Below are positions 69-16,502 of a DNA stretch of 32,000 nt, in pieces. Source of the stretch: Candidatus Pelagibacter ubique HTCC1062 (lineage in GTDB: Bacteria > Pseudomonadota > Alphaproteobacteria > Pelagibacterales > Pelagibacteraceae); the NCBI RefSeq assembly GCF_000012345.1, contig NC_007205.1:60001-92000 (forward strand), read 5' to 3'. Position 1 is the stretch's first letter. The number at the start of each line of letters is the position of its first letter. The position numbers and the translations under genes were made by a program. Under the pieces are notes generated by a model. It was not told the DNA's origin. It did no database searches and saw only the letters and a program-made list of their open reading frames with translations.

Positions 69-2219
69 CTATCCAATTGATATTAAAGTAAGATCATCAC
101 TTAATTTTCCAGATTTAGAGCTGTCAATTATTTTTTTACTAATATCTGATAAGTGTTTCTTCGAATCTTTTGTGTAGTTATCTTCAATTATTTCAATTGA
201 ACCTTCAATACCTATTTCTTGTCCTTCAGCATTTAAACTTTCAGACAATCCATCTGTAAAAACATAAAATTTGTTTCCATTTAAAACTTGTTTATTAATT
301 TTATAAATTGATTTATTTTTTTGGTGAATAACCCCCATCGGCGGCGCTTCACTATCAAAATTTTGGTATTTACCATTTTTGTCTCTAATGATAGCTGGTT
401 GATGTCCCGCATTTACCCATGAAACTTCTTTGGTAATTAAATCATATTTTCCAAGAACACATGTCACAAACATGCCTGATGTTTTGGTGAGAAATAAATC
501 GTTATTCATATGAAGCATCATTTCATCTGGATCTACCTGATCTCTTGACATGACTTCAAATAAAGTAGAGGCTTTTGCCATCACCATTCCAGCATGAACT
601 CCCTTACCTGCTACATCTGCAATTATAAAATTAATACTATCATTATGGGGATAAAAACTAAAAAAATCACCTGAAACTTCTCTCGAAGCAATATTAATTC
701 CTTGCACAGGATAATTTTGTAAATCTCTTTTTGGTAAAAAATTTTCTTGAACTTTTACAGCCAAATTTATTTCTTTGGAAATTCTACTTCGCCACTTTTC
801 TTTTTCATTTTCGCTAACCTCAAGCTTGTTCATCAATTTATTATAATAAAGTCCTATTACCCCTCCTGCAGTGAAAGGATCTTGTGGGCCTCTAACAGAG
901 AGATCTCCACTTTCAGACTGTTTTTCAAGGATTGAAATTAAATCATGTTCTACTGAAACTGCATTATGTTCAGCAATATTTAATCCTAATTCCTCTTGTA
1001 AAGGAGTTACTCTTAATGGATAAAAATAATTTAAAATTTTTAAAATAATATAAGATCCAAAAAATGCGAAAGCACCAATTGCTAATATTCCTATAACCTG
1101 GACTTCAATTTGCTCTAACCTTGTAAGTCCTGTTCCTAATTTTTCTAAATCACTGAACAAACCAACTGAAATAGTTCCCCATACACCTGCTCCTAAATGA
1201 ACTGGCACTGCACCTACGACATCATCTATCTCATATTTGTTTAACAGTTCATTTATAAAAATTGCTACGATTGCACCAATAATACCAACAAAAATTGCCG
1301 TAACTGATGTCATTGAATTACAACCAGCTGTTATAGCAACCAATCCTGCAAGAGGACCTAATATTACATAAAATGGATCTGGTTTTTTAAATAATAAAAA
1401 TGAAATACCTAGTCCAGTTAACAACCCAAAAGCAGCAGAAAGAAATGTATTTATCAATATTAATGGCACTGTTTCATCCATTGCTCCATTACTTCCGCCA
1501 TTAAAACCAAACCAACCAAACCATAAAATTAAGGTTCCTAAAACGGCTAACGGAAAACTAGAGCCAGTAAATTTACCTTTATTAGACTCAGAATATTTAC
1601 CAATTCTTGGCCCTAAAATTAATACAGCAGCAAGTGCAATCCATCCTCCAACAGAATGAACAATAGTGCTACCAGCAAAATCAACAAAACCAAGTTCTGT
1701 TAACCATCCAGTATTTTTAATTTCTCCCGTAACAGCCGATAACTGCATTACAGTATCATTCATATTATTTAGATAACTGGATGACCAAGCCCAATGACCA
1801 ACAATTGGATAAATTATGCCAGTTGCAATTATCGTTATTATTAAATATCCATTAAATTTCATTCTTTCAGCCACAGCTCCAGAAACTATTGTTGCAGCAG
1901 TTGCAACAAACATGGCTTGGAACACAAAATATGTCATGTAATCAGCTTTTTCGGTTTTAAAGAAAAAAAGATCTGTTCCAAAAAAACCATTATAACTTGT
2001 CCCAAACATTAAGCCGAAACCAAAAATCCAAAAAACTACAACTGATAAACCAAAATCAGCAGCATTCTTAAGAGCAACGTTAATACTATTTTTGTGTCGT
2101 GAAAGACCAGTTTCCATACACATGAAACCAGCTTGCATGATGAAAACTAATATCGCACAATCAATAACCCAAAGAGTATCAACAAACGATTTTACAGATT
2201 CCAAACTAATACTTTCCAT
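69..2219 (-). CDS. Ammonium transporter (Amt/MEP) domain fused to a C-terminal PP2C/SpoIIE-type serine phosphatase domain
   Basis: The N-terminal ~400 aa is multi-TM with Amt signatures: AGFMCMETGLSRHKNSINVALKN, VDFAGSTIVHSVGGWIALAAVLILGPRIG and the second pore His in VPVHLGAGVWG. A coiled-coil-like linker follows (NKLEVSENEKEKWRSRISKEINLAVKVQENFLP). PP2C/SpoIIE motifs then follow: SGDFFSFY, IADVAGKGVHAG, FTDGLSES and DDLTLISIG. Confidence 0.85.
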   Translation of the reverse strand: MESISLESVKSFVDTLWVIDCAILVFIMQAGFMCMETGLSRHKNSINVALKNAADFGLSVVVFWIFGFGLMFGTSYNGFFGTDLFFFKTEKADYMTYFVFQAMFVATAATIVSGAVAERMKFNGYLIITIIATGIIYPIVGHWAWSSSYLNNMNDTVMQLSAVTGEIKNTGWLTELGFVDFAGSTIVHSVGGWIALAAVLILGPRIGKYSESNKGKFTGSSFPLAVLGTLILWFGWFGFNGGSNGAMDETVPLILINTFLSAAFGLLTGLGISFLLFKKPDPFYVILGPLAGLVAITAGCNSMTSVTAIFVGIIGAIVAIFINELLNKYEIDDVVGAVPVHLGAGVWGTISVGLFSDLEKLGTGLTRLEQIEVQVIGILAIGAFAFFGSYIILKILNYFYPLRVTPLQEELGLNIAEHNAVSVEHDLISILEKQSESGDLSVRGPQDPFTAGGVIGLYYNKLMNKLEVSENEKEKWRSRISKEINLAVKVQENFLPKRDLQNYPVQGINIASREVSGDFFSFYPHNDSINFIIADVAGKGVHAGMVMAKASTLFEVMSRDQVDPDEMMLHMNNDLFLTKTSGMFVTCVLGKYDLITKEVSWVNAGHQPAIIRDKNGKYQNFDSEAPPMGVIHQKNKSIYKINKQVLNGNKFYVFTDGLSESLNAEGQEIGIEGSIEIIEDNYTKDSKKHLSDISKKIIDSSKSGKLSDDLTLISIG

Positions 2220-2322: not shown

Positions 2323-4560
2323 TTATTTACCAATTGCAATAATTGTTAAATCATCATCAAGAATATCATTATCTTTTTTAACGCCATCTTCCACAATTTC
2401 TTTTTTTAAACTTTTTAAACGAATTTCTTCTGTCGCACTTGTTAATTCTTTTTGTAATGAAGAGTTTGTGTGTTTTAGGATTAATTCTTTTACACCATCA
2501 ATTCCTATTTCTTGTTTATTTTCATCCATACATTCTGAAAATCCATCAGTAAAACAGTAAATTCGTCCACCATTTAATTTAAAGCTTTCTAATTGATAAA
2601 CACTTTCATCTTTATGCTTAATGACTGCCAAAGGCATTGAGCTTGAAGGATATTCTTTAAAATCTTTACCCACTTTTAATAAAGTTGGCTGATGTCCAGC
2701 ATTTGCAATTTCAACTAAATCTGTTTTCAAATTATATCTTCCAACAATTGAAGTAATAAAGGTACCAACAGGATTAGTTTCTTTCAAATCATTATTCATC
2801 TCTAATAAAATTTCGTTAGGCTTAAATTTTTGCTTAGCGAAGATCTTAAATAAAGTAATAGCTTTTGCCATAACCATTCCTGCATTCACCCCTTTTCCTG
2901 AAACATCAGATAGGGTGAAATACACCTCATCATCATGAAGGTAAAAATCATAAAAATCTCCCGAGATTTCTCTTGCAGGAATATTTAATCCAAATATTGG
3001 ATAGTTTTCTATATCTCTTTTTGGCATTAATCGTTGCTGAACATTCATTGCAAGTTTAATTTCTTTAGAAACTCTATTCTTCCATTTGTTTTTTTGCTTT
3101 TCACTTTGTTCCAATTTGTTCATTATGACATTATATTGCGTGCCAATAATTCCACTTTCAGTAAAAGGATCTTGTGGTGCGCGGCTTGAATAATTGTCTG
3201 ATTTTGCTTGATTAGTTAATACCTCAAGTAATTCGTGCGTGTCCGTTGATGCATTGTGTTCTGAAATATTTAAACCAAGTTCTTCATGAATTTTACTTAC
3301 TCTTAGAGGGAAAAATGAATTAATAGTTTTTAATATTAAATAAGAACCAATGAAACAAAAAGCACCAATTGAACTTATGCCAATTAGTTGAATATATATT
3401 TGTTCTAATCTTGTTTTTTCAACACCCATCAATTCAAAATTTGCAAACAAAGCAACTGCAATAGTTCCCCAAATTCCACATGCTAAGTGAACTGGTATTG
3501 CACTAACCACATCATCAATTTTAATTTTTTCAAGTAATACAATTGTTGAGCCTGAAATAATTCCACCAATACTTCCTATTATAATTGCATGAGTGGGATC
3601 AACATAAGCACAAGAAGCAGTTATTGAAACTAGTCCAGCAAGGGGACCCGTGATCATAAATAATGGCTCTGGTTTTTTTAAAACAATGATACCCATAACA
3701 CTTGAGAAAATAAGTCCAAAGGATGCTGATAAAAAAGTATTAATTAAAATTAATGGAATTTTTAAATCCATTGCACCATTAGCACCTCCATTAAATCCAA
3801 ACCAACCAAACCACAAAATTAAAGCACCTAAAGCTGCCATTGGTGTATTACTTCCTTGAAAAGATTTTTTTTTATCATCTTCTCTAAATCTTCCAGTACG
3901 GTTACCAACTACCAGTAATACTGATAAAGCAATCCATCCTCCTACAGAGTGTACAACGGATGCACCTGCAAAATCTAAATATCCTAATTGACCTAACCAA
4001 CCAAATTTTTCAGCAGGATTTTCAAAATTAAATGCCCAAGACCAGTGACCTACAATTGGATAAAAGAGGCCAGAAACTAATAATGTAATAATTATATATG
4101 AGAAAAACTTTAATCTTTCTGCAACTGCACCTGAGATAATAGTTGCAGCTGTTGCAACAAACATTGCTTGGAAGACAAAATATGTTTGATAGCCTGCAAC
4201 CTTAGTGGTGAAGAAAAAAAATTTGGTACCAAACAGTCCTGATACACTGGTTCCATACATTAATGCGAAACCAAACGCCCAAAAAACTACAACAGATATT
4301 CCAAAGTCTGAAACATTTTTAAGGGCAACGTTAATACTGTTCTTGTTCCGAGACAAACCAGTCTCTAAACACATAAAGCCTGCCTGCATTAAAAAAACAA
4401 GGATTGCACAAATTAAAAGCCAAAAGGTATCTAAATTTGCTTGTAAGATTGCATCTAAGCGAAATTCTAATGCATTTAAAGCTCCCTTATTAGTAAGCTC
4501 TAATTGATTTATGTTGGACTGCAGCTTATTGAGCAATATCTGAGTATCAGCTGCAGTCAT
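2323..4560 (-). CDS. Ammonium transporter domain fused to PP2C/SpoIIE phosphatase (paralog of the 69-2219 gene)
   Basis: Same architecture, colinear over the full length: AGFMCLETGLSRNKNSINVALKN, LDFAGASVVHSVGGWIALSVLLVVGNRTG, IPVHLACGIWG, then SGDFYDFY, LSDVSGKGVNAG, FTDGFSEC and DDLTIIAIG. It has an extra ~45-aa N-terminal extension. Confidence 0.85.
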   Translation of the reverse strand: MTAADTQILLNKLQSNINQLELTNKGALNALEFRLDAILQANLDTFWLLICAILVFLMQAGFMCLETGLSRNKNSINVALKNVSDFGISVVVFWAFGFALMYGTSVSGLFGTKFFFFTTKVAGYQTYFVFQAMFVATAATIISGAVAERLKFFSYIIITLLVSGLFYPIVGHWSWAFNFENPAEKFGWLGQLGYLDFAGASVVHSVGGWIALSVLLVVGNRTGRFREDDKKKSFQGSNTPMAALGALILWFGWFGFNGGANGAMDLKIPLILINTFLSASFGLIFSSVMGIIVLKKPEPLFMITGPLAGLVSITASCAYVDPTHAIIIGSIGGIISGSTIVLLEKIKIDDVVSAIPVHLACGIWGTIAVALFANFELMGVEKTRLEQIYIQLIGISSIGAFCFIGSYLILKTINSFFPLRVSKIHEELGLNISEHNASTDTHELLEVLTNQAKSDNYSSRAPQDPFTESGIIGTQYNVIMNKLEQSEKQKNKWKNRVSKEIKLAMNVQQRLMPKRDIENYPIFGLNIPAREISGDFYDFYLHDDEVYFTLSDVSGKGVNAGMVMAKAITLFKIFAKQKFKPNEILLEMNNDLKETNPVGTFITSIVGRYNLKTDLVEIANAGHQPTLLKVGKDFKEYPSSSMPLAVIKHKDESVYQLESFKLNGGRIYCFTDGFSECMDENKQEIGIDGVKELILKHTNSSLQKELTSATEEIRLKSLKKEIVEDGVKKDNDILDDDLTIIAIGK

Positions 4561-4573
4561 AATTTTATTTTAA

Positions 4574-4903
4574 TTAATCTACTAATTTTCTAGCTTCACC
4601 AGCATCAGTAATAATCTTATCAACACTTACTACTTTAATAACTTCAAAGCCTGTTCCAAGTATTGCTTTTTTATAATCTTCATTAGATAAATCAGATTTA
4701 TCAGGGTAAGATGATACCGCAACACCTTCTGGCCATGAGACTTTAACAGTAGCAGATGGGCTAGCTGCTTGAAGTGCTTTAGTTACCATTTTTTGGCATT
4801 TAATACACATCATTCCATTTACTTGGGCAATTTGAGTTTGAGCTGCAAATAAATTGGTTGAAAATAAAACAAAACCTAAAAATAGTATATATTTTTTGAA
4901 CAT
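4574..4903 (-). CDS. Secreted heavy-metal-associated (HMA; MerP/CopZ-like) domain protein
   Basis: N-terminal signal peptide (MFKKYILFLGFVLFSTNLFAAQ) followed by the GMxCxxC-type motif NGMMCIKCQKMVTKAL. The size fits a single ferredoxin-like HMA fold. It sits 13 nt upstream of the Amt::PP2C gene on the same strand. Confidence 0.55.
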   Translation of the reverse strand: MFKKYILFLGFVLFSTNLFAAQTQIAQVNGMMCIKCQKMVTKALQAASPSATVKVSWPEGVAVSSYPDKSDLSNEDYKKAILGTGFEVIKVVSVDKIITDAGEARKLVD

Positions 4904-5398: not shown

Positions 5399-5836
5399 TT
5401 AGCAATCATCGCCTCTAGTAAAATTGCCGTTACGACTAAGGATTAATTGGCAAGCTCCATCGATTTCTTTAGCAATTATATTAAAATTTGAAGAACCTAT
5501 GCTTGCAACACAAATTTCATAACCCATATCTTTACCAATTTGATCTCCTCCACCAAACAAAATTGTTTCAATATCATTTGATGTTGATGAGGTAGGTGTG
5601 CAGCTATCATTATCCTGCGTGTAATAATTTCCACTATTTGAATATTCTTCTGTTTGAGCTAGTGATATTTGTAGCATCACATTTTTTGTAGATTTTTCTT
5701 TAGTGCCTGAAATATAACCGCTGTAAGTAATAACTCCTACAGAAGCTAAAATACCAATTATTGCTACCACAACTAAAAGCTCAACCAGGGAAAACCCTAG
5801 TGAGCTTTTAATTTTTATTTTTTTTGTTTCTTGCAA
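5399..5836 (-). CDS. Type IV pilin-like protein (second pilin; possibly minor or PilE-like)
   Basis: Class III signal with prepilin cleavage/methylation motif: SSLG|FSLVELLVVVAIIGILASVG, with Phe+1 and Glu+5. It has an unusually long basic leader (MQETKKIKIKSSLG) and two Cys pairs in the C-terminal half. It starts 9 nt after the upstream pilin stop. Confidence 0.8.
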   Translation of the reverse strand: MQETKKIKIKSSLGFSLVELLVVVAIIGILASVGVITYSGYISGTKEKSTKNVMLQISLAQTEEYSNSGNYYTQDNDSCTPTSSTSNDIETILFGGGDQIGKDMGYEICVASIGSSNFNIIAKEIDGACQLILSRNGNFTRGDDC

Positions 5837-5845
5837 TCGAGATGA

Positions 5846-6331
5846 TTATTCTATTGCAACAGCATTAGTTAGTACGTCAACAGTTGCGTCGTCACCATAC
5901 TGTGTTGAAACGGTAATAGTTCCAGCATCATCCCCTGTTATTGTTGTAACACCTTTTCCTGATGCTAGACATGTTGTACTACCATCTGAAGCCGTTGGCA
6001 CAGTACTACCGTCTGTTACTCCTTTACAAACTGGCGTGTATGTGTTTTTAAAATCTGCTAGTGCAGCAACAGCACCACTCATGATTAAAGCTTCTGTTCT
6101 GCCTGAACATGTTAAATTTCCACTCATTGCAGTAGACTCAGTACCCATGTTACATTTTTGAATTTCAGCAGCTAAATATTTTGTTACTGCCCCTTGGTTT
6201 GATTTAGAAGCATTAATTTTTGCACTCTTAGTGTAACCATTGTAAGCAACAACACCTACCGCAGCTAAAATACCTATAATTGCTACAACAACTAGCAATT
6301 CAATAAGTGTAAAACCTTTATTATTTTTCAT
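5846..6331 (-). CDS. pilA: Type IVa major pilin candidate
   Basis: Short leader plus MKNNKG|FTLIELLVVVAIIGILAAVG (Phe+1, Glu+5). The globular part is Ser/Thr/Gly-rich with two Cys pairs (CNMG..LTC and CKGV..TTC). It is the first gene after a 158-nt divergent intergenic region. Confidence 0.8.
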   Translation of the reverse strand: MKNNKGFTLIELLVVVAIIGILAAVGVVAYNGYTKSAKINASKSNQGAVTKYLAAEIQKCNMGTESTAMSGNLTCSGRTEALIMSGAVAALADFKNTYTPVCKGVTDGSTVPTASDGSTTCLASGKGVTTITGDDAGTITVSTQYGDDATVDVLTNAVAIE

Positions 6332-6489
6332 AATTTCCTCTGTTATTAGTTATTATTATTAAATTTATTATAATTATTGATGATGTAAACTAAAAATCTT
6401 ATTATATTAAATAATAATCAAAGATAATTGACCATATTGGGTTTACTTGTTTCTTATTTTTGTTAATAGCTATAAATAGTAAATAAAAT

Positions 6490-6774
6490 ATGAAATATAA
6501 AGTTACAGATAATGAAAATGTAAGCACTGTTTTTCTTACTGGAGAAATAGATATGGATGTTGCAGATGAGGTAAGAGAAATTGTTTTTCCTTTAATTGAT
6601 GCTGGAAAAGAAGTTCATTTAAATTTAAAAGATGTACCCTACATGGACTCTTCTGGTATATCGATAATTATAGAAAGCAATCAAAGAGCTCGAGAGAAAA
6701 ATACTAAAGTTGAACTTAAAGAGGTTAGTCAACCTGTTGAAAAAGTTCTAGCAATGGCAAGAAAGTTTTTATGA
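6490..6774 (+). CDS. STAS-domain anti-sigma-factor antagonist (SpoIIAA/RsbV family)
   Basis: 94 aa with the conserved phosphorylatable-serine context YMDSSGISIIIES (compare DSSGL in SpoIIAA/RsbV). Its 4-nt ATGA overlap with the next STAS gene suggests translational coupling. Confidence 0.8.
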   Translation: MKYKVTDNENVSTVFLTGEIDMDVADEVREIVFPLIDAGKEVHLNLKDVPYMDSSGISIIIESNQRAREKNTKVELKEVSQPVEKVLAMARKFL

Positions 6775-7070
6775 CATACAAAATTACAGAAGAAGACAAT
6801 ATAAGCACCATATTTTTAGATGGTGAAATAGACATGGATAAAACGGATGAAGTTAAGGGAGTTATCTTTCCTGTTATCGACTCTGGTAAAAATGTTGCTT
6901 TAAATCTAAGTAATGTTCAATACATGGATTCTTCTGGTATTTCAGTTTTAATAGAAAGTCATCAAAAAGCCCTTGAGAAGGGAACCAAGCTTGTCATTAA
7001 AGATGTGAGTAAATCTGTTTTAAAAGTAATCATGATGGCAAAGTTAGAACAAATTTTAAATTTGGAGTAA
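6771..7070 (+). CDS. STAS-domain anti-sigma-factor antagonist, second tandem paralog
   Basis: 99 aa with the same YMDSSGISVLIES motif. 54 of 94 aligned positions are identical to the upstream paralog by my hand alignment. Confidence 0.8.
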   Translation: MTYKITEEDNISTIFLDGEIDMDKTDEVKGVIFPVIDSGKNVALNLSNVQYMDSSGISVLIESHQKALEKGTKLVIKDVSKSVLKVIMMAKLEQILNLE

Positions 7071-7077
7071 ATAAATT

Positions 7078-7512
7078 ATGAGTTTAGAAAACTTTAGTCA
7101 TTCAGAAAAAAAAGATTTTTTAGTTAGCTCAGCAAGTTTGAAAGATGTCAGAGCTTTTTCTAGAGATGTTTTTGAAAAATTTAAAATTGATGAAGATTTA
7201 AGAGAAGAGTTAGTTTTAGCGATTGCTGAAGCTGCGCAAAATATAGTTAAACATGCATATAAAGATATGCCTGACACTCAAGATAAAATGGTTGTAAGAA
7301 TATCTTGTAATGATGATGTTCTAGAGATTTCTTTCTTTGATAAAGGCAAACCAGTAGAAAAAAGCAAAGTTAAACATAGAGCGATCGATGATATTAAACC
7401 AGGTGGACTAGGAACATTTTTCATTCAACAAATTATGGATTCAATTAATTTTGAACCAGGAAAAGAACCCTGGATTAATAATTTAGTTTTAACTAAAAAA
7501 TTAAAAAATTAG
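7078..7512 (+). CDS. RsbW/SpoIIAB-like anti-sigma-factor-type serine protein kinase (HATPase_c)
   Basis: 144 aa with an N-box-like EAAQNIVKHAY and a G-box-like KPGGLGTFFIQQIMD. It lies immediately downstream of the two STAS genes, the classic antagonist-kinase order. Confidence 0.75.
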   Translation: MSLENFSHSEKKDFLVSSASLKDVRAFSRDVFEKFKIDEDLREELVLAIAEAAQNIVKHAYKDMPDTQDKMVVRISCNDDVLEISFFDKGKPVEKSKVKHRAIDDIKPGGLGTFFIQQIMDSINFEPGKEPWINNLVLTKKLKN

Positions 7513-8741
7513 TTAATTAAAGCACCCACATTAAATATTGGTGAGTACATGGCTATCATTAAACCACCAATCATTACTCCCATGAAAACAATCATGATAG
7601 GTTCAATTAAAGCAGACATGTTATCGACTGTAGTATCAAATTCTTCTTCATAATAAGCAGATACTGAATTAAACATTTCATCTAATTGACCTGTTTGTTC
7701 TCCAACAGAAATTAATTGACTAAAAGTTGGTGGGAAGAGTGGTTCTTTTAAAAAAAGTTTTGTTAAGGTATCACCAGAGAACACACCTTTTTTTACACTC
7801 TCTAGTGCATCCGTTATCACATCATTATTACTAACTGATTTTGCAATTTCTAAACTCTCTAATAAATTTACACCAGCAGCACTTAAATTACCTAAAATCA
7901 ATGCAATTCTTGCCAGTAGAGATTTTAAGATCATATCTCCAAAAATAGGTAATTTTAAAATTTGTTTATGCCATCTAAAACGAATTGCAGCATTTCTTTT
8001 TACAATAAAATTAAACCCGAAATATCCACCTATTCCACCAAACAGAATTACTTTTCCACCTGTACCACTTAAAAAATCACTCATTGCCATGATGGTTGCT
8101 GTTGCAGCGGGTAATTCTAAGCCCATTCCATCGTACATTTTTGCAAATACTGGAACTACTTTAATCAACATAAAAGCACTTACAGTAATCGCTACCGTAA
8201 ACATGATCGCTGGATACATTAAAGCTCCCTTAATTTTTTTCTTAATCTTTTCTTTTTTCTCTAATGAATCTACTATTTTAAGTAAAAATACATCTAGCTT
8301 ACCACTTGCTTCACCAGCTTTAATCAAGTTGACATAAATATTATCAAAATATTGAGGATATTTTTCAAAACATTTTGATAGGTTCACACCCCCTTCTAAA
8401 CTTTTTCTAATATCTTCTATAATGTCTTTAAGAGCAGGACTTTCTAATTGGTCCCTTAACATTATTAAAACCTGCAAAATAGGTAAGCCCGCCTTAACCA
8501 TGGTTGCAAATTGCTTTGAGAATATAAGAATTTCTTCTACTTTAACTTTTTTTTTACCAAAAAGAGATGAGCCACCTGATTTTTTTTTTGCTTCACCTTT
8601 TTTTTTCTTAGACTTAATTATGTTGGTGATTATTACTTTTTTTTCTTTTAATAAATGAGAAGCTTCATCAAGGTTGATTGCCTCAATATCTCCTTCTACA
8701 TATTTACCTTCGGATATTCCTTTATAAGTAAAAGCTTCCAT
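7509..8741 (-). CDS. pilC: Type IV pilus inner-membrane platform protein (GspF/PilC family)
   Basis: 410 aa with duplicated GspF-type repeats (FSKQFATMVKAGLPILQVL / LARIALILGNLSAAGVNLLESL) and three TM segments. It follows pilB with a 2-nt gap. Confidence 0.9.
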   Translation of the reverse strand: MEAFTYKGISEGKYVEGDIEAINLDEASHLLKEKKVIITNIIKSKKKKGEAKKKSGGSSLFGKKKVKVEEILIFSKQFATMVKAGLPILQVLIMLRDQLESPALKDIIEDIRKSLEGGVNLSKCFEKYPQYFDNIYVNLIKAGEASGKLDVFLLKIVDSLEKKEKIKKKIKGALMYPAIMFTVAITVSAFMLIKVVPVFAKMYDGMGLELPAATATIMAMSDFLSGTGGKVILFGGIGGYFGFNFIVKRNAAIRFRWHKQILKLPIFGDMILKSLLARIALILGNLSAAGVNLLESLEIAKSVSNNDVITDALESVKKGVFSGDTLTKLFLKEPLFPPTFSQLISVGEQTGQLDEMFNSVSAYYEEEFDTTVDNMSALIEPIMIVFMGVMIGGLMIAMYSPIFNVGALIN

Positions 8742-8743
8742 TT

Positions 8744-10495
8744 TTATTCGCTTGAAAGAATTCTCTCATACTCTCTAAAATTAAGCTCACCAGATGCAAT
8801 CATTCTTCTACCCATATCTTGCATCGTTCTAAATCCTTCCTTAATAGCTATTTCTCTTAATTCAGGAGTGGTTGCTTGTTTTAAAATAGCTTCTTTAATT
8901 GGTTTTGATACCACTAAGATTTCATAAATACCTTGTCGACCTTTGTATCCTGAGTCACTACATTTTGCACAACCTTTACCTTTGATGGCTTTTACTTTTG
9001 AAGCGTCTTCATCACTAAACCCCATATCTTTAAGAACCTTAGGATTAACATCATCATCAGGCACTCTACAATCTTTACAATTTTTTCTAGCTAGTCTTTG
9101 GGCTACAACAAGTTGGCAGGCAGCACTTATTAAATAATCTGGTGTTCCCATGTTTTGTAATCTAGTAATAGTACTTGGGGCATCATTAGTGTGTAGAGTA
9201 CTAAATACTAAGTGACCTGTAAGGGCAGCCTTTAATCCGATATCAACTGTTTCTTTATCCCTCATCTCACCAACTAGAATAATTTCAGGGTCTTGTCTTA
9301 AAAAAGATCTTAAAGCTTTAGCAAAAGTAAAACCGATATCATCTTTAATTTGTACTTGTCCTACACCATCTAATTCATATTCTACAGGATCTTCAGCTGT
9401 TAAAATATTTAAATGGGGCTTACTTACTTCTTTTAAAATACTATATAACGTTGTTGATTTCCCAGATCCTGTTGGTCCAGTTACCAAAATTAATCCCTGA
9501 CTACCGTGAATTCCTTTTCTTAGACTTTCTAAATCTTGCTTTTCAAAATTTAATTGTTCAAGGGTAATATCTCCTGCATCTTTGTTAAGAATACGCATAA
9601 CAATTCTCTCATTATTTGCAGTAGGTAAAATTGATAAACGTAAATCAACTACTTTATTGCCAATTTTAAAATTAATGGCTCCATCTTGTGGCAATCTTCT
9701 TTCTGCAATATCTAATTTACCCATAATTTTAAATCGAGTAACCACTGCTCCATAGTTGTCATGTAAAAACTGTCTATAGGTTTCTTGTTCTTGAAGCATA
9801 CCGTCTAATCGGTATCTTACTCTTGAACTAAATCGGTAAGGCTCAATATGAATATCACTGACACCCATTTTAATTGCATCTGCTACCACTGCCGTACTAA
9901 ATTTTATTACCTCTGACTCATTTTCAATTGCTTCAATATCTTCTTCTGGTTTATTGTCTAAAACTTCCCCTGCATCTCCTAAATCTGTTTCAAAAGTTTT
10001 TGTTTTTCTCCTATTCTCATTTCGAATTGACGCAATAGTTACTTCATCTGTTTCACTTGATAATCTTTCAATATATTCAGAAATATCACCTATTTTTGCA
10101 GCATGAAGTTCTATGTTTTTTTTTGTAATAGCTTTTAAATTTCGCATCAATCCCAATTTTGAACTATCTGGGATTGCCATGTGTAAAGTTTTTCCATCAA
10201 TTTTAAATGGTGCTACAAAATTCATCTTAATATAGTTTGATGGTAAAACTGTTTTTACTTCTTCAGTAATTTCAACTGACTTTAGATCAATTATTTCTAG
10301 ATTTTGTTCTTTAATTAATAAATCAATTATTTTTTTTTCATCAGTAAGCTTTAATTCAAATATTGCATCAATTTGAGATTTATTGTTTTCAGTGCTTACT
10401 TTTTTAATATCTATTAAATCTTTTCCAGAAATAATGTCATTATCAATTAAGACATTAACTAAATTAATTTCACTCTCTCTACTTATTTTAAACAT
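8744..10495 (-). CDS. pilB: Type IV pilus assembly (extension) ATPase, GspE/PilB family
   Basis: Walker A GPTGSGKSTT, Asp box and Walker B (ILVGEMRD), His box (GHLVFSTLHTND) and a C-terminal tetracysteine cluster (CKDC...CAKC). An N-terminal T2SSE_N-like domain is present. Confidence 0.9.
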   Translation of the reverse strand: MFKISRESEINLVNVLIDNDIISGKDLIDIKKVSTENNKSQIDAIFELKLTDEKKIIDLLIKEQNLEIIDLKSVEITEEVKTVLPSNYIKMNFVAPFKIDGKTLHMAIPDSSKLGLMRNLKAITKKNIELHAAKIGDISEYIERLSSETDEVTIASIRNENRRKTKTFETDLGDAGEVLDNKPEEDIEAIENESEVIKFSTAVVADAIKMGVSDIHIEPYRFSSRVRYRLDGMLQEQETYRQFLHDNYGAVVTRFKIMGKLDIAERRLPQDGAINFKIGNKVVDLRLSILPTANNERIVMRILNKDAGDITLEQLNFEKQDLESLRKGIHGSQGLILVTGPTGSGKSTTLYSILKEVSKPHLNILTAEDPVEYELDGVGQVQIKDDIGFTFAKALRSFLRQDPEIILVGEMRDKETVDIGLKAALTGHLVFSTLHTNDAPSTITRLQNMGTPDYLISAACQLVVAQRLARKNCKDCRVPDDDVNPKVLKDMGFSDEDASKVKAIKGKGCAKCSDSGYKGRQGIYEILVVSKPIKEAILKQATTPELREIAIKEGFRTMQDMGRRMIASGELNFREYERILSSE

Positions 10496-12051
10496 TATAA
10501 AATTCTTGGAGCGATAAATACCAATAACTCGTTCATTGTATCAGAATTTGATTTTCCACTAAGTACTTTTCCTAGAATTGGTACTTTTGACGTTCCTGGA
10601 ACACCTTGTCTATTATTCGCTACGTTATTTTTTTTAATACCACCAATTACAACTATATCCCCATCAGCTACTAATAATTTTGTATTTATCTCCATTTTAT
10701 TTACACCTACTGATGCTGCATTTGCTCTATTTGGAGTATCATTGTTTACTTGAATTGAAAGCATAACGTTTCCATCACCTATGATATTAGGAGTAACTAT
10801 CAGTTTTAATGATGCATCAACTGGTTTATCTTCCCCTTCTCCACCATCAATATAAATTGTTTCACCCTGATTAATACTTGCTTGTTGATTATCTAATGTA
10901 AATAATTTTGGATTAGATACTGTTTTTGATAAGCCTTGAGCTTCTAAAAAATCAAGTTCAAGTTTTAAAACAGCAGAACCTGTTTTTTTCAATATTCCAA
11001 TTCCACTTGTTGCAGCAGCTGACCCAAAATTTACTAAATTATCTGTTCCAGCACCGCTTGTAAAAGCACCTGTTGAATCAGATAATGCAGCCCCTGAACC
11101 AGATGCAGCTCCTACACTACTACCTCCTTGTGTACCACCCATTCTTAAACTTTTTCTTGTATAAGCGGCTCCAAGTCTTTTTCCTAAACTTTGCTCAAAT
11201 GTTGAAGTAGCTTCAACTATAAAAGCTTCTATTAAAACCTGTTTTGTTCTTTTATCAATTTCTCGAATAACTTTATCAACGATATCTAAATCTTTCTCTT
11301 TACCTCTAACAATAATTGATCTTGTGGTTGCTTCTTCCGTTACTTGTATTGGTATAAAATTTCCATTCGTTCCAACAGTTGTAAATAATTCTGTGATTGT
11401 GGCTTTAGCTTCTGATGGAGTTATATAATAAAGTCTAAAAATTTCTGAAATAATTGGTTCTACTGAATCTTCTAATTCAACTTTTTTCTTAACTGCTGAA
11501 GCTCTCGCTGATTTATAACCTTCTTGTGACGTTAGATTAGCAGGAGTAGAAACTCTAATAATATTACTTGCTACATCTATGTCTGCTGCATAATTTTTTA
11601 AATCTAATAATGCATTAAATGCTTTATCCCATGGAACATTATCTAACTCTGCACTTATTGATCCTGCCACATCGTCACCTACTAAAATATTAATTTGACC
11701 AACTTCAGACATTAATTTCATTGCTTCTTTAAAATCTAAAGCTTGAAATTTAAAAGAAACATTTTGTTTTAAAGATTTGAAATCTTCCGAAATTAATAAA
11801 TAATTTCTCTCTTTAACAGATGATATTTGTTTCCTTTTTTTAAGCTTTACGACATCACCTTCAGCAGGAGTTGGTCCCATTTCTACACTTTTTTCAACCT
11901 CTAGTTTTCCAGTTTTCTTGATATCAGTTTTTATTAGTGGGGTGTCGTGTTTAAAAGAACCAGTGTTTTTAGCAAATTTTTCAGCACAACCTGTTAAAAA
12001 AATAAATAAAAAAGGTAAAATTAAAAATGATATTCTTTTTTTAAATTTCAT
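10495..12051 (-). CDS. pilQ: Type IV pilus secretin with an N-terminal lipobox
   Basis: C-terminal secretin signature (VVIGGIKKNNVANNRQGVPGTSKVPILGKVLS...ELLVFIAPRIL) and N0/secretin_N-like repeats. The signal peptide ends in LTGC. Its stop shares one nucleotide (10495) with the pilB start. Confidence 0.85.
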   Translation of the reverse strand: MKFKKRISFLILPFLFIFLTGCAEKFAKNTGSFKHDTPLIKTDIKKTGKLEVEKSVEMGPTPAEGDVVKLKKRKQISSVKERNYLLISEDFKSLKQNVSFKFQALDFKEAMKLMSEVGQINILVGDDVAGSISAELDNVPWDKAFNALLDLKNYAADIDVASNIIRVSTPANLTSQEGYKSARASAVKKKVELEDSVEPIISEIFRLYYITPSEAKATITELFTTVGTNGNFIPIQVTEEATTRSIIVRGKEKDLDIVDKVIREIDKRTKQVLIEAFIVEATSTFEQSLGKRLGAAYTRKSLRMGGTQGGSSVGAASGSGAALSDSTGAFTSGAGTDNLVNFGSAAATSGIGILKKTGSAVLKLELDFLEAQGLSKTVSNPKLFTLDNQQASINQGETIYIDGGEGEDKPVDASLKLIVTPNIIGDGNVMLSIQVNNDTPNRANAASVGVNKMEINTKLLVADGDIVVIGGIKKNNVANNRQGVPGTSKVPILGKVLSGKSNSDTMNELLVFIAPRIL

Positions 12052-12053
12052 AA

Positions 12054-12560
12054 TTATTTTGTTCTTTCTGTAATTTTATTATTAAAATTTATCACTAAGA
12101 GAGAGTTTTCATTTTTTTCAAAAACTGCTTCTCTATTGTTAAGTCCAACTAATTTTACTCCAGGGCTTAATTCTTCAAACCTAGCTAAAGTAATTATATT
12201 TCCACTTGAATTAATTAAAGATACGAACCCATCATCATTTGCAGAGGTCATTATCCCAACTAATTTAAACTTATATAAGCTCATTTCATTTTGTGCCTCT
12301 TCTGGATTACTTGATAAAATTGTATTACCACCAGTTAATGAACTATCTCCAGCAAAAGGATCGTTTAATGGAAGAGGCTCTTCATCTTTAATTTCTGATG
12401 AAATATTCGATTGTGAATTTGCCTGTTTTTCTTTGATCTTTTTATTTATCTCTTTAGCTTTATCAATAATGTTTTGCTCTTTATCATGACTATCAGCCAT
12501 GGAAACTTTTGATAGCAACATAAAAAACACTGAAATAATGATTATTTTAAAAAAATTCAT
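12054..12560 (-). CDS. pilP: PilP-like pilus assembly protein
   Basis: Signal peptide, a low-complexity linker and a C-terminal beta-domain resembling PilP (YKFKLVGIMTSANDDGFVSLINSSGNIITLARFEELSPGVKLVGLNNREAVF). Its position between the pilO-like gene and pilQ fits. Confidence 0.55.
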   Translation of the reverse strand: MNFFKIIIISVFFMLLSKVSMADSHDKEQNIIDKAKEINKKIKEKQANSQSNISSEIKDEEPLPLNDPFAGDSSLTGGNTILSSNPEEAQNEMSLYKFKLVGIMTSANDDGFVSLINSSGNIITLARFEELSPGVKLVGLNNREAVFEKNENSLLVINFNNKITERTK

Positions 12561-13224
12561 TTGGTAACCCCACTATTGTTAACGTACCTTTTACTTTTAT
12601 CGCTCCAGTTGTATTCCCTTTTACCACCTGAATAGACTCTTTGTCAAAGTTTAACATTTTGTTAGAAAGCGATAGAGCTCTTTTAAATTTTATGTAACCA
12701 ATAAAATTACCATCAATTTCAAAATCAACAGGGATCAAATAATAGGCAATATTTGCAACATTTTTAACTTGGTTGTTTTTCTTTTTTTTCGTTTTTTTAC
12801 CGTCTGCTTGGGCTAAGGCTTGTGCTTTTAATACTTCTTGAATTACCTTTTTTTCAATTCTAGTGATTACTAGATCATTTTGTCCGGCATATTCACTTAA
12901 TGTTTGATAAAGACCCTCTACTTCAGCTTTAGAATGAAACAAGCTAGAGTATTTTTCATAATCAGGCTTAAGTTTTTTAATTCTTGCTCTCATTGAATAA
13001 ATTTCAGAAGTAAATTTTGCAGTTTCTTGTATTTTCAAATTCATGTCGTCCAATTTAGCTTTTCTAGACTCAACCATTGGATTTAAAATTGCGTAATAAA
13101 TTATTAAGAAAAAAACAATTGCACCAAAGATTATTCCTATTTTTATAAGAGTTTTTTTATCAGCTAATTTTGTAATCTGATCCTTGATATCAGACATGTT
13201 AATATTTTTTAAATCTATATCCAT
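12547..13224 (-). CDS. pilO: PilO-like bitopic pilus alignment protein
   Basis: One N-terminal TM (LIKIGIIFGAIVFFLIIYYAIL), then a coiled coil and a ferredoxin-like C-terminal region. The call rests on synteny between PilN and PilP, so it is mainly positional. Confidence 0.55.
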   Translation of the reverse strand: MDIDLKNINMSDIKDQITKLADKKTLIKIGIIFGAIVFFLIIYYAILNPMVESRKAKLDDMNLKIQETAKFTSEIYSMRARIKKLKPDYEKYSSLFHSKAEVEGLYQTLSEYAGQNDLVITRIEKKVIQEVLKAQALAQADGKKTKKKKNNQVKNVANIAYYLIPVDFEIDGNFIGYIKFKRALSLSNKMLNFDKESIQVVKGNTTGAIKVKGTLTIVGLPNEFF

Positions 13225-13226
13225 TG

Positions 13227-15770
13227 CTATATTTTACCTGTTTTAATTTTTACAAACACTCTAAAGCCTTTCATTGTAGCACCACCTGCTGTAGATTTTG
13301 GTAATCGCATTGATGATAAAGATGCTTGCTCAACCAATTTTTGATTTCCTAAATTTTCTATAAATTTCAATATATCTTGATCACTTGCAGCTATTCCTTG
13401 AATAGTTAATCTTCTAGATCCATTAAATTCAACTTGATCAAATTTTACACGGTTTGGAACACTTGAGGCTACTTGAGCTAAAATTCTATAAGTTAATTCT
13501 TTATTTGATTTAAGTGTTCTACTTAATTTTAAAGACGTATTAATTACACTAAGTTCTTTTGAAACTATTTTTTTCTGTTTAATAATTTTAGCATGATCTA
13601 TTTTTACAGTTTCATATTGTTTTAATTTTTTATTATAGGAAGCAATATTCCAAAAAGATAAACCAAATAATACCACATAAATTGCAACTACAGCAGCAGT
13701 AATACCCTTGAATGCAAAACCTGAAATTGCTTTCATCTTCTTTTGCTTCATTACATTTGATCTATCTGGAAGAAGATTTATATTTTTAACTGCAGTAACA
13801 AATTTATAATAACCAAAGACATCAAGTTTTCTAAAGGCTAAGCCAACAGAAGTAGATAGATAAGATCTATTTAACTTATTATCTAAAATTTGTTGATACT
13901 GACTTGGAATTTTTAATCCTTCAGTAGGATCAAAAGTGTTAAATCCAACATTCATTAAAATTTTTCTAAAACTTCCTAAATATTCGTCTACATTTTTGAT
14001 ATCTGAAACAACTTTTATGTTTCGAATTCTCTTTTCATATTTAGTCTCAAAATCTTGAATTGCTTGCTTAACTTGAGTAACATATCTTCTAACTAATCCT
14101 TCTTTTTCTTCAGTATCTTGAGAATCTTGTAAAATTTTTCTATCTTGCCCTCTAATAAAAATATCAGTTATTATTGGGTTATTATTATAGAGGATCATTA
14201 AATAATTTTCATCTAATCCAAATTCTAAAACAGCAGTTAAATTGGCATCCTCAGTTTTATTTGTTATTTGATTAACTTGATCAACTGATGACTTTAAAGC
14301 AAAACATTTAACATCTATGATTACAGGATTTAAACCTGCATTTTTAATTATTGAAGTATAACTATTTATATCTGTTAATTTTGATGCAACGAATAAAATA
14401 TCCATTGTATTTTCTTTATCATTTCTATTTATGACTTGATGAAAAATAGAATAATCTTCCAAACTATCTGTTAGTTGAACTAGGTTTTCCCACAATGAAT
14501 TAGTTTCGATTGCTTTATTTAATTCATCTTCTTTCATTAAAGGTGCGGTGACTACTCTTATGATTGCACTAGTTACCGGAATAGCAATTGCTGCATTTGG
14601 TGAAGTTATTTTGTATTTTTGAATTGCTAATACTAATTCTTCTGAAAATTTATCCGCATTATCAATTGGAGTACTATCATCTGTAATGTCGACGGGGTGA
14701 ATATGTAATTTTTCTAACACCCATTGATTAGCTTTGTTACTAGAAACTTGGACTATTCTTATTTCTTTATTTGCTAACTCAATACCAATTATTTCTTCGC
14801 CTTGAACACTAGATTTACCTAATTTGGATTTGAAAAAATTTTGTATTTTTGATTTATAATTTCCAACTTTAGAATTATTAAAAGATGATTTTTTTATATT
14901 TTTAGCAAAATCTGGTTTTTTAATTTTAATTTCCTTAATTTTTCCAAAAATATTTGATAATTTACTTTTTACCTGATCTTGGGTAGATATTTCTGAGTTT
15001 TCATTTAATGGAACACTTGAAGTTTGTGGTTGTGCTTCATTATTACTTTGATTGGTTGTTGAAATATCAATTTGTGAAGATTCACCCTCTTCTGGCTTAA
15101 TATTTTCTTCAATTTTTAATTTTTTACTTTCTTCATGAACATCATCAAACCATTTTTCCAAAATTGGTATTGCATCATCTAAATTTGTTGTTCCAGAAGA
15201 TGAAATTTTTTGTTTACCATCAATATAAAGTCTACCTACCCAGTTTCTTGATTTAAGTTCACCTTTATATTTATCTTGCCTTACATATATATGTAGTCTT
15301 CCATCTTTTTTATGAATTACCTCATGCTCTTTTTTTTGTTCCTCATTATTAGTATTTGATGCACTTACATTTTGCTCAACAGATTCATCTTGAGATTGTA
15401 AAGTTTCTGAATTTTCAGTTAAATTATCATTTTCATTGGATTTTTCTGATTCATTATTATCAGTTTCTTGAGGATTTAAAGTATCAGTTGAATCGTTTTC
15501 AGATTGGTTTTCCTGATCACTCTTTAAAGTCTCTTCATCATTATTAGTATTTGATGCACTTACATTTTGCTCAACAGATTCATCTTGAGATTGTAAAGTT
15601 TCTGAATTTTCAGTTAAATTATCATTTTCATTGGATTTTTCTGATTCATTATTATCAGTTTCTTGAGGATTTAAAGTATCAGTTGAATCGTTTTCAGATT
15701 GGTTTTCCTGATCACTCTTGAGAGTATCTTCCTCTTTATAATCAAATTTGTCTTTATTATCTTCGTCCAT
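13227..15770 (-). CDS. PilM-PilN fusion protein with a ~325-aa N-terminal extension
   Basis: Residues ~325-660 are PilM-like actin-fold (EIIGIELANKEIRIVQVS...). Residues 663-847 are PilN: the INLLPDR motif at about 13764-13790, a TM (ITAAVVAIYVVLFGLSFW) and a periplasmic domain. The N-terminal extension is acidic and Asn/Ser-rich with a duplicated 65-aa unit, followed by a Lys-rich block. Confidence 0.75.
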   Translation of the reverse strand: MDEDNKDKFDYKEEDTLKSDQENQSENDSTDTLNPQETDNNESEKSNENDNLTENSETLQSQDESVEQNVSASNTNNDEETLKSDQENQSENDSTDTLNPQETDNNESEKSNENDNLTENSETLQSQDESVEQNVSASNTNNEEQKKEHEVIHKKDGRLHIYVRQDKYKGELKSRNWVGRLYIDGKQKISSSGTTNLDDAIPILEKWFDDVHEESKKLKIEENIKPEEGESSQIDISTTNQSNNEAQPQTSSVPLNENSEISTQDQVKSKLSNIFGKIKEIKIKKPDFAKNIKKSSFNNSKVGNYKSKIQNFFKSKLGKSSVQGEEIIGIELANKEIRIVQVSSNKANQWVLEKLHIHPVDITDDSTPIDNADKFSEELVLAIQKYKITSPNAAIAIPVTSAIIRVVTAPLMKEDELNKAIETNSLWENLVQLTDSLEDYSIFHQVINRNDKENTMDILFVASKLTDINSYTSIIKNAGLNPVIIDVKCFALKSSVDQVNQITNKTEDANLTAVLEFGLDENYLMILYNNNPIITDIFIRGQDRKILQDSQDTEEKEGLVRRYVTQVKQAIQDFETKYEKRIRNIKVVSDIKNVDEYLGSFRKILMNVGFNTFDPTEGLKIPSQYQQILDNKLNRSYLSTSVGLAFRKLDVFGYYKFVTAVKNINLLPDRSNVMKQKKMKAISGFAFKGITAAVVAIYVVLFGLSFWNIASYNKKLKQYETVKIDHAKIIKQKKIVSKELSVINTSLKLSRTLKSNKELTYRILAQVASSVPNRVKFDQVEFNGSRRLTIQGIAASDQDILKFIENLGNQKLVEQASLSSMRLPKSTAGGATMKGFRVFVKIKTGKI
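15344..15733. repeat. Two-copy 195-bp in-frame tandem duplication inside the pilMN 5' region
   Basis: 15344-15524 is identical base for base to 15539-15719 (181 nt, hand-checked), giving a period of 195 nt or 65 codons. The unit encodes EETLKSDQENQSENDSTDTLNPQETDNNESEKSNENDNLTENSETLQSQDESVEQNVSASNTNN. Confidence 0.9.
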
Positions 15771-15834
15771 AAAACTTATAAATAAAAATTAATATTTAAA
15801 TTGTTAATTGATTCTCTAACACAAAATTAATAAA

Positions 15835-15845
15835 ATTCTAACACA
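15835..15845 (-). promoter_or_regulatory. Candidate extended -10 element (TGTGTTAGAAT read on the minus strand) for the pilMN operon
   Basis: The reverse complement of attctaacaca gives TG-T-TAGAAT, i.e. TGn plus a 5/6 match to TATAAT. It lies ~65 nt upstream of the pilMN ATG (15770). No good -35 sits at 17 nt; TTGAAC at 15862-15867 is 21 nt away. AT-rich context makes chance matches likely. Confidence 0.25.
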
Positions 15846-16138
15846 AGATTATAATCATTATGTTCAAAATGGGTTGAATTTAATAAGAAACTATAAAATA
15901 TTCAATTAAATCAACAGTTTATTAAAATCATTGAAAAAAATTAAATTTAAGATATTTTTTTCTAAATAATATTTTCTCTAACACATTTATCATAATTTTA
16001 TCTTTTTATATTGTGTTAGAAATTTAATATTTTTTTCTATTTTTAAAAAATAAGTAAAATAGCTATTTTTTATTAAAACAACTTTTAATTGTTTTTTGTG
16101 TGAGAGAAAATTTTTTTTGTGTGAGAGAAAAATTTATT

Positions 16139-16149
16139 TGTGTTATAAT
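16139..16149 (+). promoter_or_regulatory. Candidate extended -10 element TGTGTTATAAT on the plus strand
   Basis: Perfect TGnTATAAT within the duplicated context tttatttgtgttataatt. It points rightwards into the palindrome array, with no ORF downstream. Confidence 0.2.
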
Positions 16150-16167
16150 TTTTTTAATTTTTTTTGT

Positions 16168-16311: not shown

Positions 16312-16502
16312 TTTATAAAAAAAAAAAATTATTTTTTTTCTCTAACACAAAAATTTTATTCTAACACATTTAAAAAAAAAAAAAATTATTTCATTTTGTG
16401 TTAGAAAATTAACATAATATTCTTTTTTAAAAAAGTAAGCAAAATCAACGTTTTTAATATTATGAATATAAAACATAAAATGTGTTAGAGCTATATTTAT
16501 TT

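Follow-up and report, generated by a model that had tools for sequence, protein, structure and literature searches.

The window analyzed here is a stretch of 32,000 nucleotides of the Candidatus Pelagibacter ubique HTCC1062 genome (positions 60,001 to 92,000 of NC_007205.1; all coordinates below are counted from its first nucleotide), with a G+C content of about 30%, that encodes, within a locus for a type IV pilus (T4P), two STAS domain proteins and a serine kinase of the RsbW/SpoIIAB type. This STAS/kinase module is real and expressed, Ser54 is phosphorylated in vivo in both of its STAS proteins, and no cognate alternative sigma factor accompanies it. Together with the sensor phosphatases encoded nearby, it appears, with a probability that we put at about one half, to constitute a complete partner switch that dispenses with a sigma factor, integrates ammonium and other signals, and most probably acts post-translationally on the T4P machinery.

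Three loose ends of SAR11 biology meet at this locus, namely a response to nitrogen limitation that involves neither PII and NtrBC nor a known sensor, an Amt-phosphatase put forward as an ammonium sensor for which no transducer had been found, and a single Ser/Thr kinase in a genome whose annotated phosphatases are reportedly not predicted to act on proteins. The locus yields a testable pathway, from an ammonium receptor phosphatase through the phosphorylated STAS proteins and the kinase to an output, and the module may show how SAR11 senses nitrogen. All the component families are known already, as are sigma-less partner switches, including HmpU/V/W that controls T4P motility; what is new with respect to the searchable literature is an ammonium-receptor phosphatase tied to a STAS/kinase pair and a pilus locus, and the addition of PP2C to the transducer classes of ammonium receptors. 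Our literature searches (Pelagibacter anti-sigma factors and pili; SAR11 partner switching and RsbW/RsbV; STAS, PilB and phosphatase) returned no paper that joins an ammonium sensor, a STAS/kinase pair and pili.

The STAS-kinase operon and the neighboring sensor phosphatases

The first gene of the module, STAS1 (6490-6774, plus strand), encodes a single-domain STAS protein of 94 amino acids (SAR11_0055 by gene order, AAZ20880; Pfam STAS, E 2e-14) and is followed on the same strand by STAS2 (6771-7070; 99 amino acids, also a single STAS domain; SAR11_0056 by gene order, AAZ20881; Pfam STAS, E 7e-17) and by the gene of the RsbW/SpoIIAB-like kinase (7078-7512; 144 amino acids; SAR11_0057, AAZ20882; Pfam HATPase_c_2, E 2e-19). 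The SAR11 locus tags of the window genes were set from the published assignment of rsbW to SAR11_0057 and the order of the protein accessions. The stop codon of STAS1 overlaps the start codon of STAS2 (ATGA), the kinase gene starts 7 nt past the STAS2 stop, and all three are tightly packed in one operon. The stop codon of the kinase gene (TAG, 7510-7512) shares 2 nt, 7510-7511, with that of the convergent pilC (7509-7511, minus strand). Both the order of two antagonists and a kinase and this stop codon overlap had been noticed in an earlier reading of the letters and open reading frames of the window (hereinafter the sequence-only reading), and the coordinates of the reading frames and the Pfam matches bear them out. 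Upstream, the operon is separated from a divergent pilin gene by a 158-bp spacer (6332-6489, delimited from the sequence), which presumably holds the promoters of both and retains approximately 71-81% nucleotide identity to the equivalent spacer of related species; a promoter and terminator scan of 6200-7700 returned no more promoter-like sites than expected from shuffled sequence.

The two STAS proteins share 54 identical residues over 91 aligned positions (59%, BLASTP), the same 54 that had been counted by hand in the sequence-only reading; both contain the motif YMDSSGIS, and the C-terminus of STAS1 is 5 residues shorter. Both score above the cutoff of the NCBIfam family ant_ant_sig (66.9 and 69.0; cutoff 53.45), and STAS2 can be aligned to RsbV, SpoIIAA and TM1442, with S54 falling in the phospho-serine column of the DS(T/S)G motif. 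The best PDB match of the kinase is RsbW of Bacillus subtilis (6M36). Judged by their sequences, the kinase and the STAS proteins carry every feature of an RsbW/RsbV pair. The kinase scores below the NCBIfam equivalog cutoffs for RsbW (NF003144, 54.0 vs 145; TIGR01924, 43.2 vs 155) and SpoIIAB (TIGR01925, 30.4 vs 135) and, given that a sigma partner is absent as well, it is best classed as partner-switch-like rather than as a sigma-B regulator.

The published HTCC1062 phosphoproteome contains the peptide GVIFPVIDSGKNVALNLSNVQYMDSSGISVLIESHQK, which is phosphorylated on S54 and belongs to STAS2, the peptide EVHLNLKDVPYMDSSGISIIIESNQR, with phospho-S54/S55, which belongs to STAS1, and kinase peptides phosphorylated at S2 and S76 (PMC13198564). 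The phosphopeptides are exact substrings of the open reading frames of the window, the hypervariable pilin among them, as befits DNA of HTCC1062 or a strain almost identical to it, and homologues of the kinase carry the annotation Candidatus Pelagibacter. The YMDSSGIS motif is found in 11 phosphopeptide rows of these data. Phosphorylation of both antagonists, which the sequence-only reading had proposed to check by mass spectrometry, is thus on record, and the Ser54 phosphopeptides indicate that the phospho-serine context is functional. STAS1, STAS2 and the kinase were all quantified in each of the six growth conditions, and the kinase, under the name RsbW (SAR11_0057), was designated the sole Ser/Thr kinase of a genome in which 1014 S/T/Y phosphorylation sites on 555 proteins were detected (PMC13198564). 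With good support, we infer that it is this kinase that phosphorylates Ser54 of the STAS proteins.

With regard to the expected partner, Pfam searches of all window open reading frames of at least 90 amino acids detect no sigma factor, response regulator or recognizable DNA-binding domain, in agreement with the sequence-only reading of the 32 kb. At E values up to 1, no concealed DNA-binding or sigma-like domain could be found in the unannotated reading frames or in the N-terminal extension of the fused PilM-PilN protein (PilMN; described below), and an Rfam scan of the whole window yielded zero matches. The genome-wide inventory of sigma factors, to which the sequence-only reading had also pointed, is available from the passage of the phosphoproteome paper that cites Giovannoni 2005: as reported there, HTCC1062 has only sigma-70 and sigma-32, and that account includes no factor of the sigma-B/F type (PMC13198564).

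The sequence-only reading had taken the three genes for a sigma-less partner-switching core. The sigma-less part of this description stands, in that no cognate sigma factor came to light, and the notion of a core alone has to be abandoned: three PP2C genes of the SpoIIE family had been missed in the window, two of them Amt fusions, and with these the locus encodes a full partner-switching module that includes the input side. Sensor phosphatase A (69-2219, minus strand; 716 amino acids; SAR11_0049 by gene order) combines an Amt domain, a HAMP-like linker and a PP2C domain (Pfam Ammonium_transp, E 7e-112; SpoIIE, E 2e-35); sensor phosphatase B (2323-4560, minus strand; 745 amino acids; SAR11_0050, AAZ20875; Ammonium_transp, E 6e-110; SpoIIE, E 1e-28) is its paralogue, 53% identical over the full length; and sensor phosphatase C (17115-18461, minus strand; 448 amino acids; SpoIIE, E 5e-40; GAF_2, E 7e-13), located between pilMN and pilD, combines GAF and PP2C domains. 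By sequence, the PP2C catalytic motifs are intact in the SpoIIE-family genes of the window; in phosphatase A, where the PP2C domain spans residues 527-715, GDF, DVAGKG, NAGH, TDG and DDLT are all visible.

The best PDB sequence matches of phosphatase A are ammonium receptors, Sd-Amt1 (8QJ3/8QPF, E 1e-117) and 6EU6 (E 1e-85), which we take to be Ks-Amt5, whereas AmtB transporters match its Amt domain at only about 1e-29. The alignment with Sd-Amt1 continues through the HAMP region (residues 420-480 of phosphatase A). The N1/N2 sensing pocket of Sd-Amt1 comprises Q22, F25, E29, K44, N45, D48, T104, S107 and Y119 (Pfluger et al. 2024, PMC11152129); in the alignment to 8QJ3, all nine of these positions, together with the twin-His and the Phe gate, are identical in the 716-amino-acid protein. 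The Amt-PP2C fusion (SAR11_0049/0050) was proposed as a SAR11-exclusive ammonium sensor in a 2025 pangenome study, which placed it in the flexible island GI5 and presented an AlphaFold model with a HAMP-like linker; its authors found no cognate transducer or other phosphatase domain together with the Amt-phosphatase and could not assess its role (PMC11796062). Both Amt-PP2C proteins have been detected in cells, and their levels, unlike those of the true transporters, are unaffected by nitrogen limitation, as expected of a sensor; the same work showed that SAR11 lacks PII and NtrBC and reports that its nitrogen limitation response is largely post-transcriptional (Smith et al. 2013, PMC3870248). 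Phosphatase B was found in all six proteome conditions of the phosphoproteome study, which lists six annotated phosphatases of HTCC1062, none of them predicted to act on protein substrates (PMC13198564); this statement overlooks the three PP2C domains of the window, which lie within the same 18 kb as the STAS/kinase pair. Activation through dimerization of a coiled-coil linker has been described as a general route for RsbU-type phosphatases, and the same sensor domains have been argued to drive phosphatases, cyclases and kinases (Baral et al. 2025, PMC12143880). A receptor-phosphatase mechanism for the Amt-PP2C proteins is therefore plausible, and PP2C would be an addition to the outputs of the known ammonium-receptor architectures. 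The neighboring SpoIIE/PP2C proteins are predicted, with good support, to reverse the phosphorylation of STAS Ser54 and, by analogy with the ammonium receptors, the Amt fusions would render this dephosphorylation responsive to ammonium.

The Amt domain does not appear to be the only sensor that the module can employ. The GAF-PP2C protein is 89-96% identical in relatives whose kinases are 70-90% identical and ranks with the best conserved proteins that the locus encodes. In many relatives, including most of those with two STAS genes, the island that harbors Amt-PP2C contains, near the pilin genes, a cassette (for example, L009, 1217-5985) that encodes a CHASE2-transmembrane-PP2C protein, a FecR-like protein and an outer-membrane protein of the beta-barrel/TPR type; from its domain architecture, CHASE2-PP2C is predicted to be an additional, alternative sensor phosphatase. 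In another HTCC1062 island, a "phosphatase, sigB regulator" (SAR11_1218) is located between pilin genes (Wilhelm et al. 2007). Given these Amt, GAF and CHASE2 variants and SAR11_1218, the module appears to take several interchangeable sensor phosphatases.

Conservation of the pilus context

A scan of one genome per species retrieved 80 loci, all from Pelagibacteraceae, with kinase identities of 67-97%; 79 of these had enough sequence downstream of the kinase for pilC to be scored, 67 could be used for Amt-PP2C and 75 for the number of STAS genes. Synteny with pil genes, which the sequence-only reading had weighed against chance adjacency, extends to all relatives that could be scored: pilC is located downstream of the kinase gene in 79/79 loci, at a distance of at most 100 bp in 67 of them and behind an insertion of 0.5-2.7 kb in the other 12. 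The inserted DNA encodes either an autotransporter-like protein of 719 amino acids (L014, 10493-12652) or an extra pilin, so that the junction of the kinase gene and pilC is an insertion site. An Amt-PP2C gene is present within 10 kb upstream in 61/67 loci, 50 of which have a single copy and 11 a pair. The YMDSSGIS motif is invariant in all 111 STAS homologues, as are the N-box EAAQNIVKHA, DxG and GGLG in all 80 kinase homologues, and the genes of the pilus locus that were mapped across the 80 loci include no sigma factor gene beside the STAS-kinase pair.

The number of STAS genes is variable. The layout with two antagonists, a starting point of the sequence-only reading, holds for HTCC1062 and for 37/75 loci altogether; the remaining 38/75 have one STAS gene, and the lone copy resembles STAS2. 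Given that half of the loci possess a single, STAS2-like copy, the duplication is clade-specific, and sequence comparison identifies STAS1 as the faster-evolving duplicate and STAS2 as the ancestral-type copy that is present in all relatives. We considered the two-STAS layout as a defining feature of the system and rejected it on these counts. The overlap of the kinase and pilC stop codons was likewise rejected as a functionally essential feature because the gap varies and 12 loci carry the 0.5-2.7 kb insertions.

SAR11 genomes are unusually syntenic, and conserved adjacency inside Pelagibacteraceae is accordingly weaker evidence than it would be in other groups; more distant relatives were therefore sampled. 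The kinase family is narrow, with 9 representatives at E values up to 1e-30 among 1.84 billion proteins, and we inspected the contexts of eight of the nearest kinase clusters, which are 33-45% identical to the query. Five of these eight adjoin pilus genes, with no fewer than three distinct gene orders among them. The order STAS-kinase-pilC is unchanged in one locus (L084) where the kinase is 36% and PilB 62% identical; in another (L086, 4347-10402), the genes for the kinase and a CHASE2-PP2C protein are flanked by a pilT-like gene on one side and a pilin gene on the other; in a third (L088, 27-1960), the kinase is accompanied by a CHASE2 protein and by a protein of the prepilin type. In L090, where PilB is only 41% identical, the kinase gene overlaps pilD by 4 nt and is followed by a pilin gene, with a STAS gene nearby on the other strand, and in L093, a pilD fragment is followed by STAS, kinase and pilin genes. 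One contig (L092) is too short for pilus linkage to be judged, and L081 and L091, discussed below, have other neighbors. No sigma factor gene is located beside the STAS-kinase pair in any of the inspected distant loci. Taken together, the recurrent co-location of these genes with pilus genes supports a functional tie to pili but falls short of proof.

Some of the distant contexts have features of their own. The kinases of L086 and L088, which come from SAR11-like genomes and are 37-42% identical to the query, have no adjacent STAS gene, and the CHASE2 genes lie in minor-pilin/pilT regions; some lineages may have a second pilus-linked kinase. In L091 (1398-4859), a related kinase-STAS pair is located directly upstream of mlaF, mlaE, mlaD and mlaC, with the STAS protein at the position expected of MlaB, which is a hint that MlaB of this organism may be under the control of a kinase.

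Possible outputs and related systems

Given that the genome reportedly encodes no factor of the sigma-B/F type and that related kinases are repeatedly found in pilus clusters, the output of the module is, as we conclude more tentatively than for the phosphorylation steps, most likely non-transcriptional and directed to the pilus. In the mechanism that we propose, the kinase would phosphorylate Ser54 of the STAS proteins, and the Amt-PP2C proteins, in one or two copies, and the cytoplasmic GAF-PP2C would counteract it. By analogy with the characterized receptors, binding of ammonium to the Amt domain would dimerize the linker and the PP2C domains; the dimerized PP2C would be the active phosphatase and would enlarge the pool of unphosphorylated STAS. 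Either the unphosphorylated STAS protein or the kinase freed from it would then bind the T4P machinery or a component of its assembly pathway, such that pilus activity would track the status of ammonium or nitrogen as well as the other signals that are sensed, with the second STAS protein probably tuning or splitting the signal. SAR11 is the most abundant bacterium of the ocean, and since it dominates the surface bacterioplankton, a coupling of nitrogen to pilus-dependent DNA uptake or attachment would be ecologically weighty.

Several known systems resemble parts of this module. With RsbU/V/W-sigma-B and SpoIIE/SpoIIAA/SpoIIAB-sigma-F of B. subtilis, it shares a SpoIIE-family PP2C, single-domain STAS proteins with DS(S/T)G, an HATPase_c_2 kinase of about 145 amino acids, the order of antagonist and then kinase, and a phospho-serine used in vivo. 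It differs from them in that its operon and the rest of the window contain no sigma factor gene and the genome is reported to have none besides those of sigma-70 and sigma-32, in that the kinase falls below the RsbW/SpoIIAB equivalog cutoffs and the module is located inside a pilus locus, and in that Amt, GAF or CHASE2 sensors replace the RsbT-binding N-domain of the phosphatase. The HmpU/V/W switch of Nostoc punctiforme is likewise sigma-independent and is genetically required for hormogonium development and T4P motility; its STAS protein HmpV is active when dephosphorylated and is regarded as the output. The Nostoc genes are cyanobacterial and are neither embedded between pilins and pilC nor joined by an Amt-fused phosphatase, and SAR11 would be the second lineage after cyanobacteria with a sigma-less partner switch tied to T4P. 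STAS proteins serve as the output in Vibrio SypA and Rhodobacter RbaV as well. The nearest non-canonical precedents assign the output to the STAS protein rather than to the kinase, and our results lend no support to PilB, PilT or PilM as the partner of the kinase, as the sequence-only reading had suggested. In Bordetella, the BtrU/V/W trio, which is encoded in a type III secretion locus, controls type III secretion post-transcriptionally and without classical release of a sigma factor; it differs from the SAR11 module in its type III secretion rather than T4P setting, in its single STAS protein, and in that phosphorylation promotes the binding of STAS to the kinase. On the input side, Sd-Amt1 (Amt-HAMP-diguanylate cyclase) and Ks-Amt5 (Amt-histidine kinase) have the closest Amt domains and share with phosphatase A the N1/N2 sites, the twin-His, the Phe gate and a HAMP-like linker to a cytoplasmic transducer; in SAR11, this transducer is a PP2C domain with a STAS/kinase switch downstream instead of cyclic di-GMP or a His-Asp phosphorelay.

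Certain observations weigh against the proposed switch. What ties the kinase and the STAS proteins to pilus proteins is genomic association, and the action of the PP2C domains on the STAS proteins and the direction of control by ammonium are predicted from domain content and analogy. Amt-PP2C belongs to a flexible island and is not found within 10 kb of the kinase in 6/67 loci, and hence it is not the essential input. The STAS operon faces pilC tail to tail and is transcribed away from the pilin genes, which implies that it is co-transcribed with neither. The phosphorylation sites on PilB (T543), PilMN (S272) and a pilin are non-specific evidence, considering the 1014 sites on 555 proteins. 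Furthermore, two of the distant relatives are not linked to pili, L081 being found among metabolic genes and L091 beside mlaFEDC.

How far the proposal can be specified is another matter. In a sharper form of it, the Amt-PP2C receptors of a bacterium without PII and NtrBC would read external ammonium and oppose the sole Ser/Thr kinase in determining how far the one or two STAS proteins are phosphorylated, and this switch would directly gate T4P, and hence DNA uptake or attachment, free of any sigma factor. We regard this form as rather doubtful; if it is correct, the locus would represent a previously undescribed route from ammonium to the pilus in SAR11 and would supply the missing transducer for a receptor class that has been known so far only with histidine kinase and diguanylate cyclase outputs.

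A different outcome, which appears unlikely, would follow the pattern of RsbU/RsbV1/RsbV2/RsbW in Chlamydia trachomatis, where a reduced genome encodes two STAS proteins, one kinase and a membrane, metabolite-sensing PP2C but no sigma-B, and where the housekeeping sigma factor is reportedly regulated (PMC8256260). The sensor of the Chlamydia system is a periplasmic ligand-binding domain rather than an ammonium channel, and its genes show no linkage to pilus genes. Under this scenario, the SAR11 kinase would sequester RpoD or RpoH, unphosphorylated STAS would release it, and the module would be a global governor of nitrogen or stress responses whose position in the pilus locus is incidental. 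The nearest characterized relatives of the kinase, RsbW and SpoIIAB, are indeed true anti-sigma factors, and SAR11 combines a set of only sigma-70 and sigma-32 with an unexplained, PII-independent response to nitrogen. However, the kinase scores far under the RsbW/SpoIIAB equivalog cutoffs, and the repeated, differently ordered co-location of related kinases with pilus genes is unexpected for a global regulator. Moreover, proteins of the RsbW family normally bind group-3 sigma factors, and the target of the Chlamydia Rsb system, proposed to be the housekeeping sigma factor, is itself still debated. Finally, the response of SAR11 to nitrogen limitation is reported to be largely post-transcriptional (PMC3870248).

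It is similarly improbable that the module acts on a target outside the pilus, such as nitrogen assimilation and transport or a general starvation program, with its location explained by frozen gene order and an island hot spot in the pilin region. The regions that flank the pilins are the hypervariable islands HVR1 and HVR4, Amt-PP2C lies in GI5, autotransporter or pilin genes separate the kinase from pilC in 12 loci, the STAS-kinase pairs of L081 and L091 occur among metabolic genes and beside mla, respectively, and an ammonium-sensing input points toward nitrogen physiology. Set against this, the STAS-kinase-pilC junction, constant in 79/79 loci, persists where kinase identity has dropped to 36%, the linkage to pili arises anew in other gene orders at a PilB identity of only 41% (L090), and the conserved GAF-PP2C gene, flanked by pilMN and pilD, is itself part of the pilus cluster. 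That the kinase is instead a broad-specificity enzyme behind much of the SAR11 phosphoproteome, with the STAS proteins as two of many substrates or as its regulators, is hardly credible: as the only annotated Ser/Thr kinase of HTCC1062 it faces 1014 S/T/Y sites on 555 proteins, but it is a protein of 144 amino acids in which Pfam detects no additional substrate-recruiting domain, tyrosine sites cannot derive from it, and HATPase_c_2 kinases such as SpoIIAB and RsbW are narrowly specific for their STAS partner.

Other features of the pilus locus

The genes that surround the module encode most of the remaining proteins referred to above. Two pilin genes (5399-6331, minus strand; SAR11_0053 and SAR11_0054; 145 and 161 amino acids, the latter AAZ20879; Pfam N_methyl) are divergent from the STAS operon. 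On its other side, and convergent on the kinase gene, are pilC, pilB, pilQ, a pilP-like gene, pilO and the pilM-pilN fusion (7509-15770, minus strand; Pfam T2SSF, T2SSE with MshEN, Secretin, PilO, and PilM_2 with PilN); the products of these assembly genes, from pilC to pilMN, are the candidate target machinery of the module. The prepilin peptidase PilD is encoded at 18561-19325 (plus strand; Pfam A24_N_bact and Peptidase_A24), and a PilY1-like giant protein, minor pilins and a pilT-like ATPase are encoded elsewhere in the window.

The fused PilMN is a single protein of 847 amino acids (13227-15770, minus strand), the N-terminal 330 or so residues of which (approximately 14790-15770) have no Pfam match. 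At the start of this extension, about 66 amino acids of an acidic, low-complexity segment are duplicated in tandem almost perfectly; the extension also includes S272, a reported HTCC1062 phosphosite. Between the Amt-PP2C genes and the pilins, there is a gene for a secreted protein of 109 amino acids (4574-4903, minus strand; AAZ20876, SAR11_0051 by accession order) with an MxCxxC heavy-metal-binding motif and weak CopZ/MerP-like matches; in published proteome data, its abundance is down about 4- to 9-fold under carbon and sulfur limitation compared with the dark stationary-phase control.

The GAF-PP2C gene and pilMN are separated by a spacer free of open reading frames (15771-17114, about 19% G+C), where copies of the 10-mer TGTGTTAGAR, in either orientation, form a phased array and are spaced about 21 and 31-34 nt apart. 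Fifteen of the 22 matches to this 10-mer in the window, including all 11 exact ones, fall within 15814-16659, compared with 5.5 matches expected by chance for the whole window. Across 17 related loci, exact copies number 117, every one of them within the 1.4 kb that precede pilMN, and the 10-mer is absent from 29 other loci; this distribution suggests that the array is probably a conserved cis-regulatory element of the pilus operon, composed of putative binding sites. In the same spacer, just downstream of the GAF-PP2C gene (16850-17026), a 59-nt unit is repeated three times in tandem, the copies being 100%, 88% and 63% identical to the reference one.

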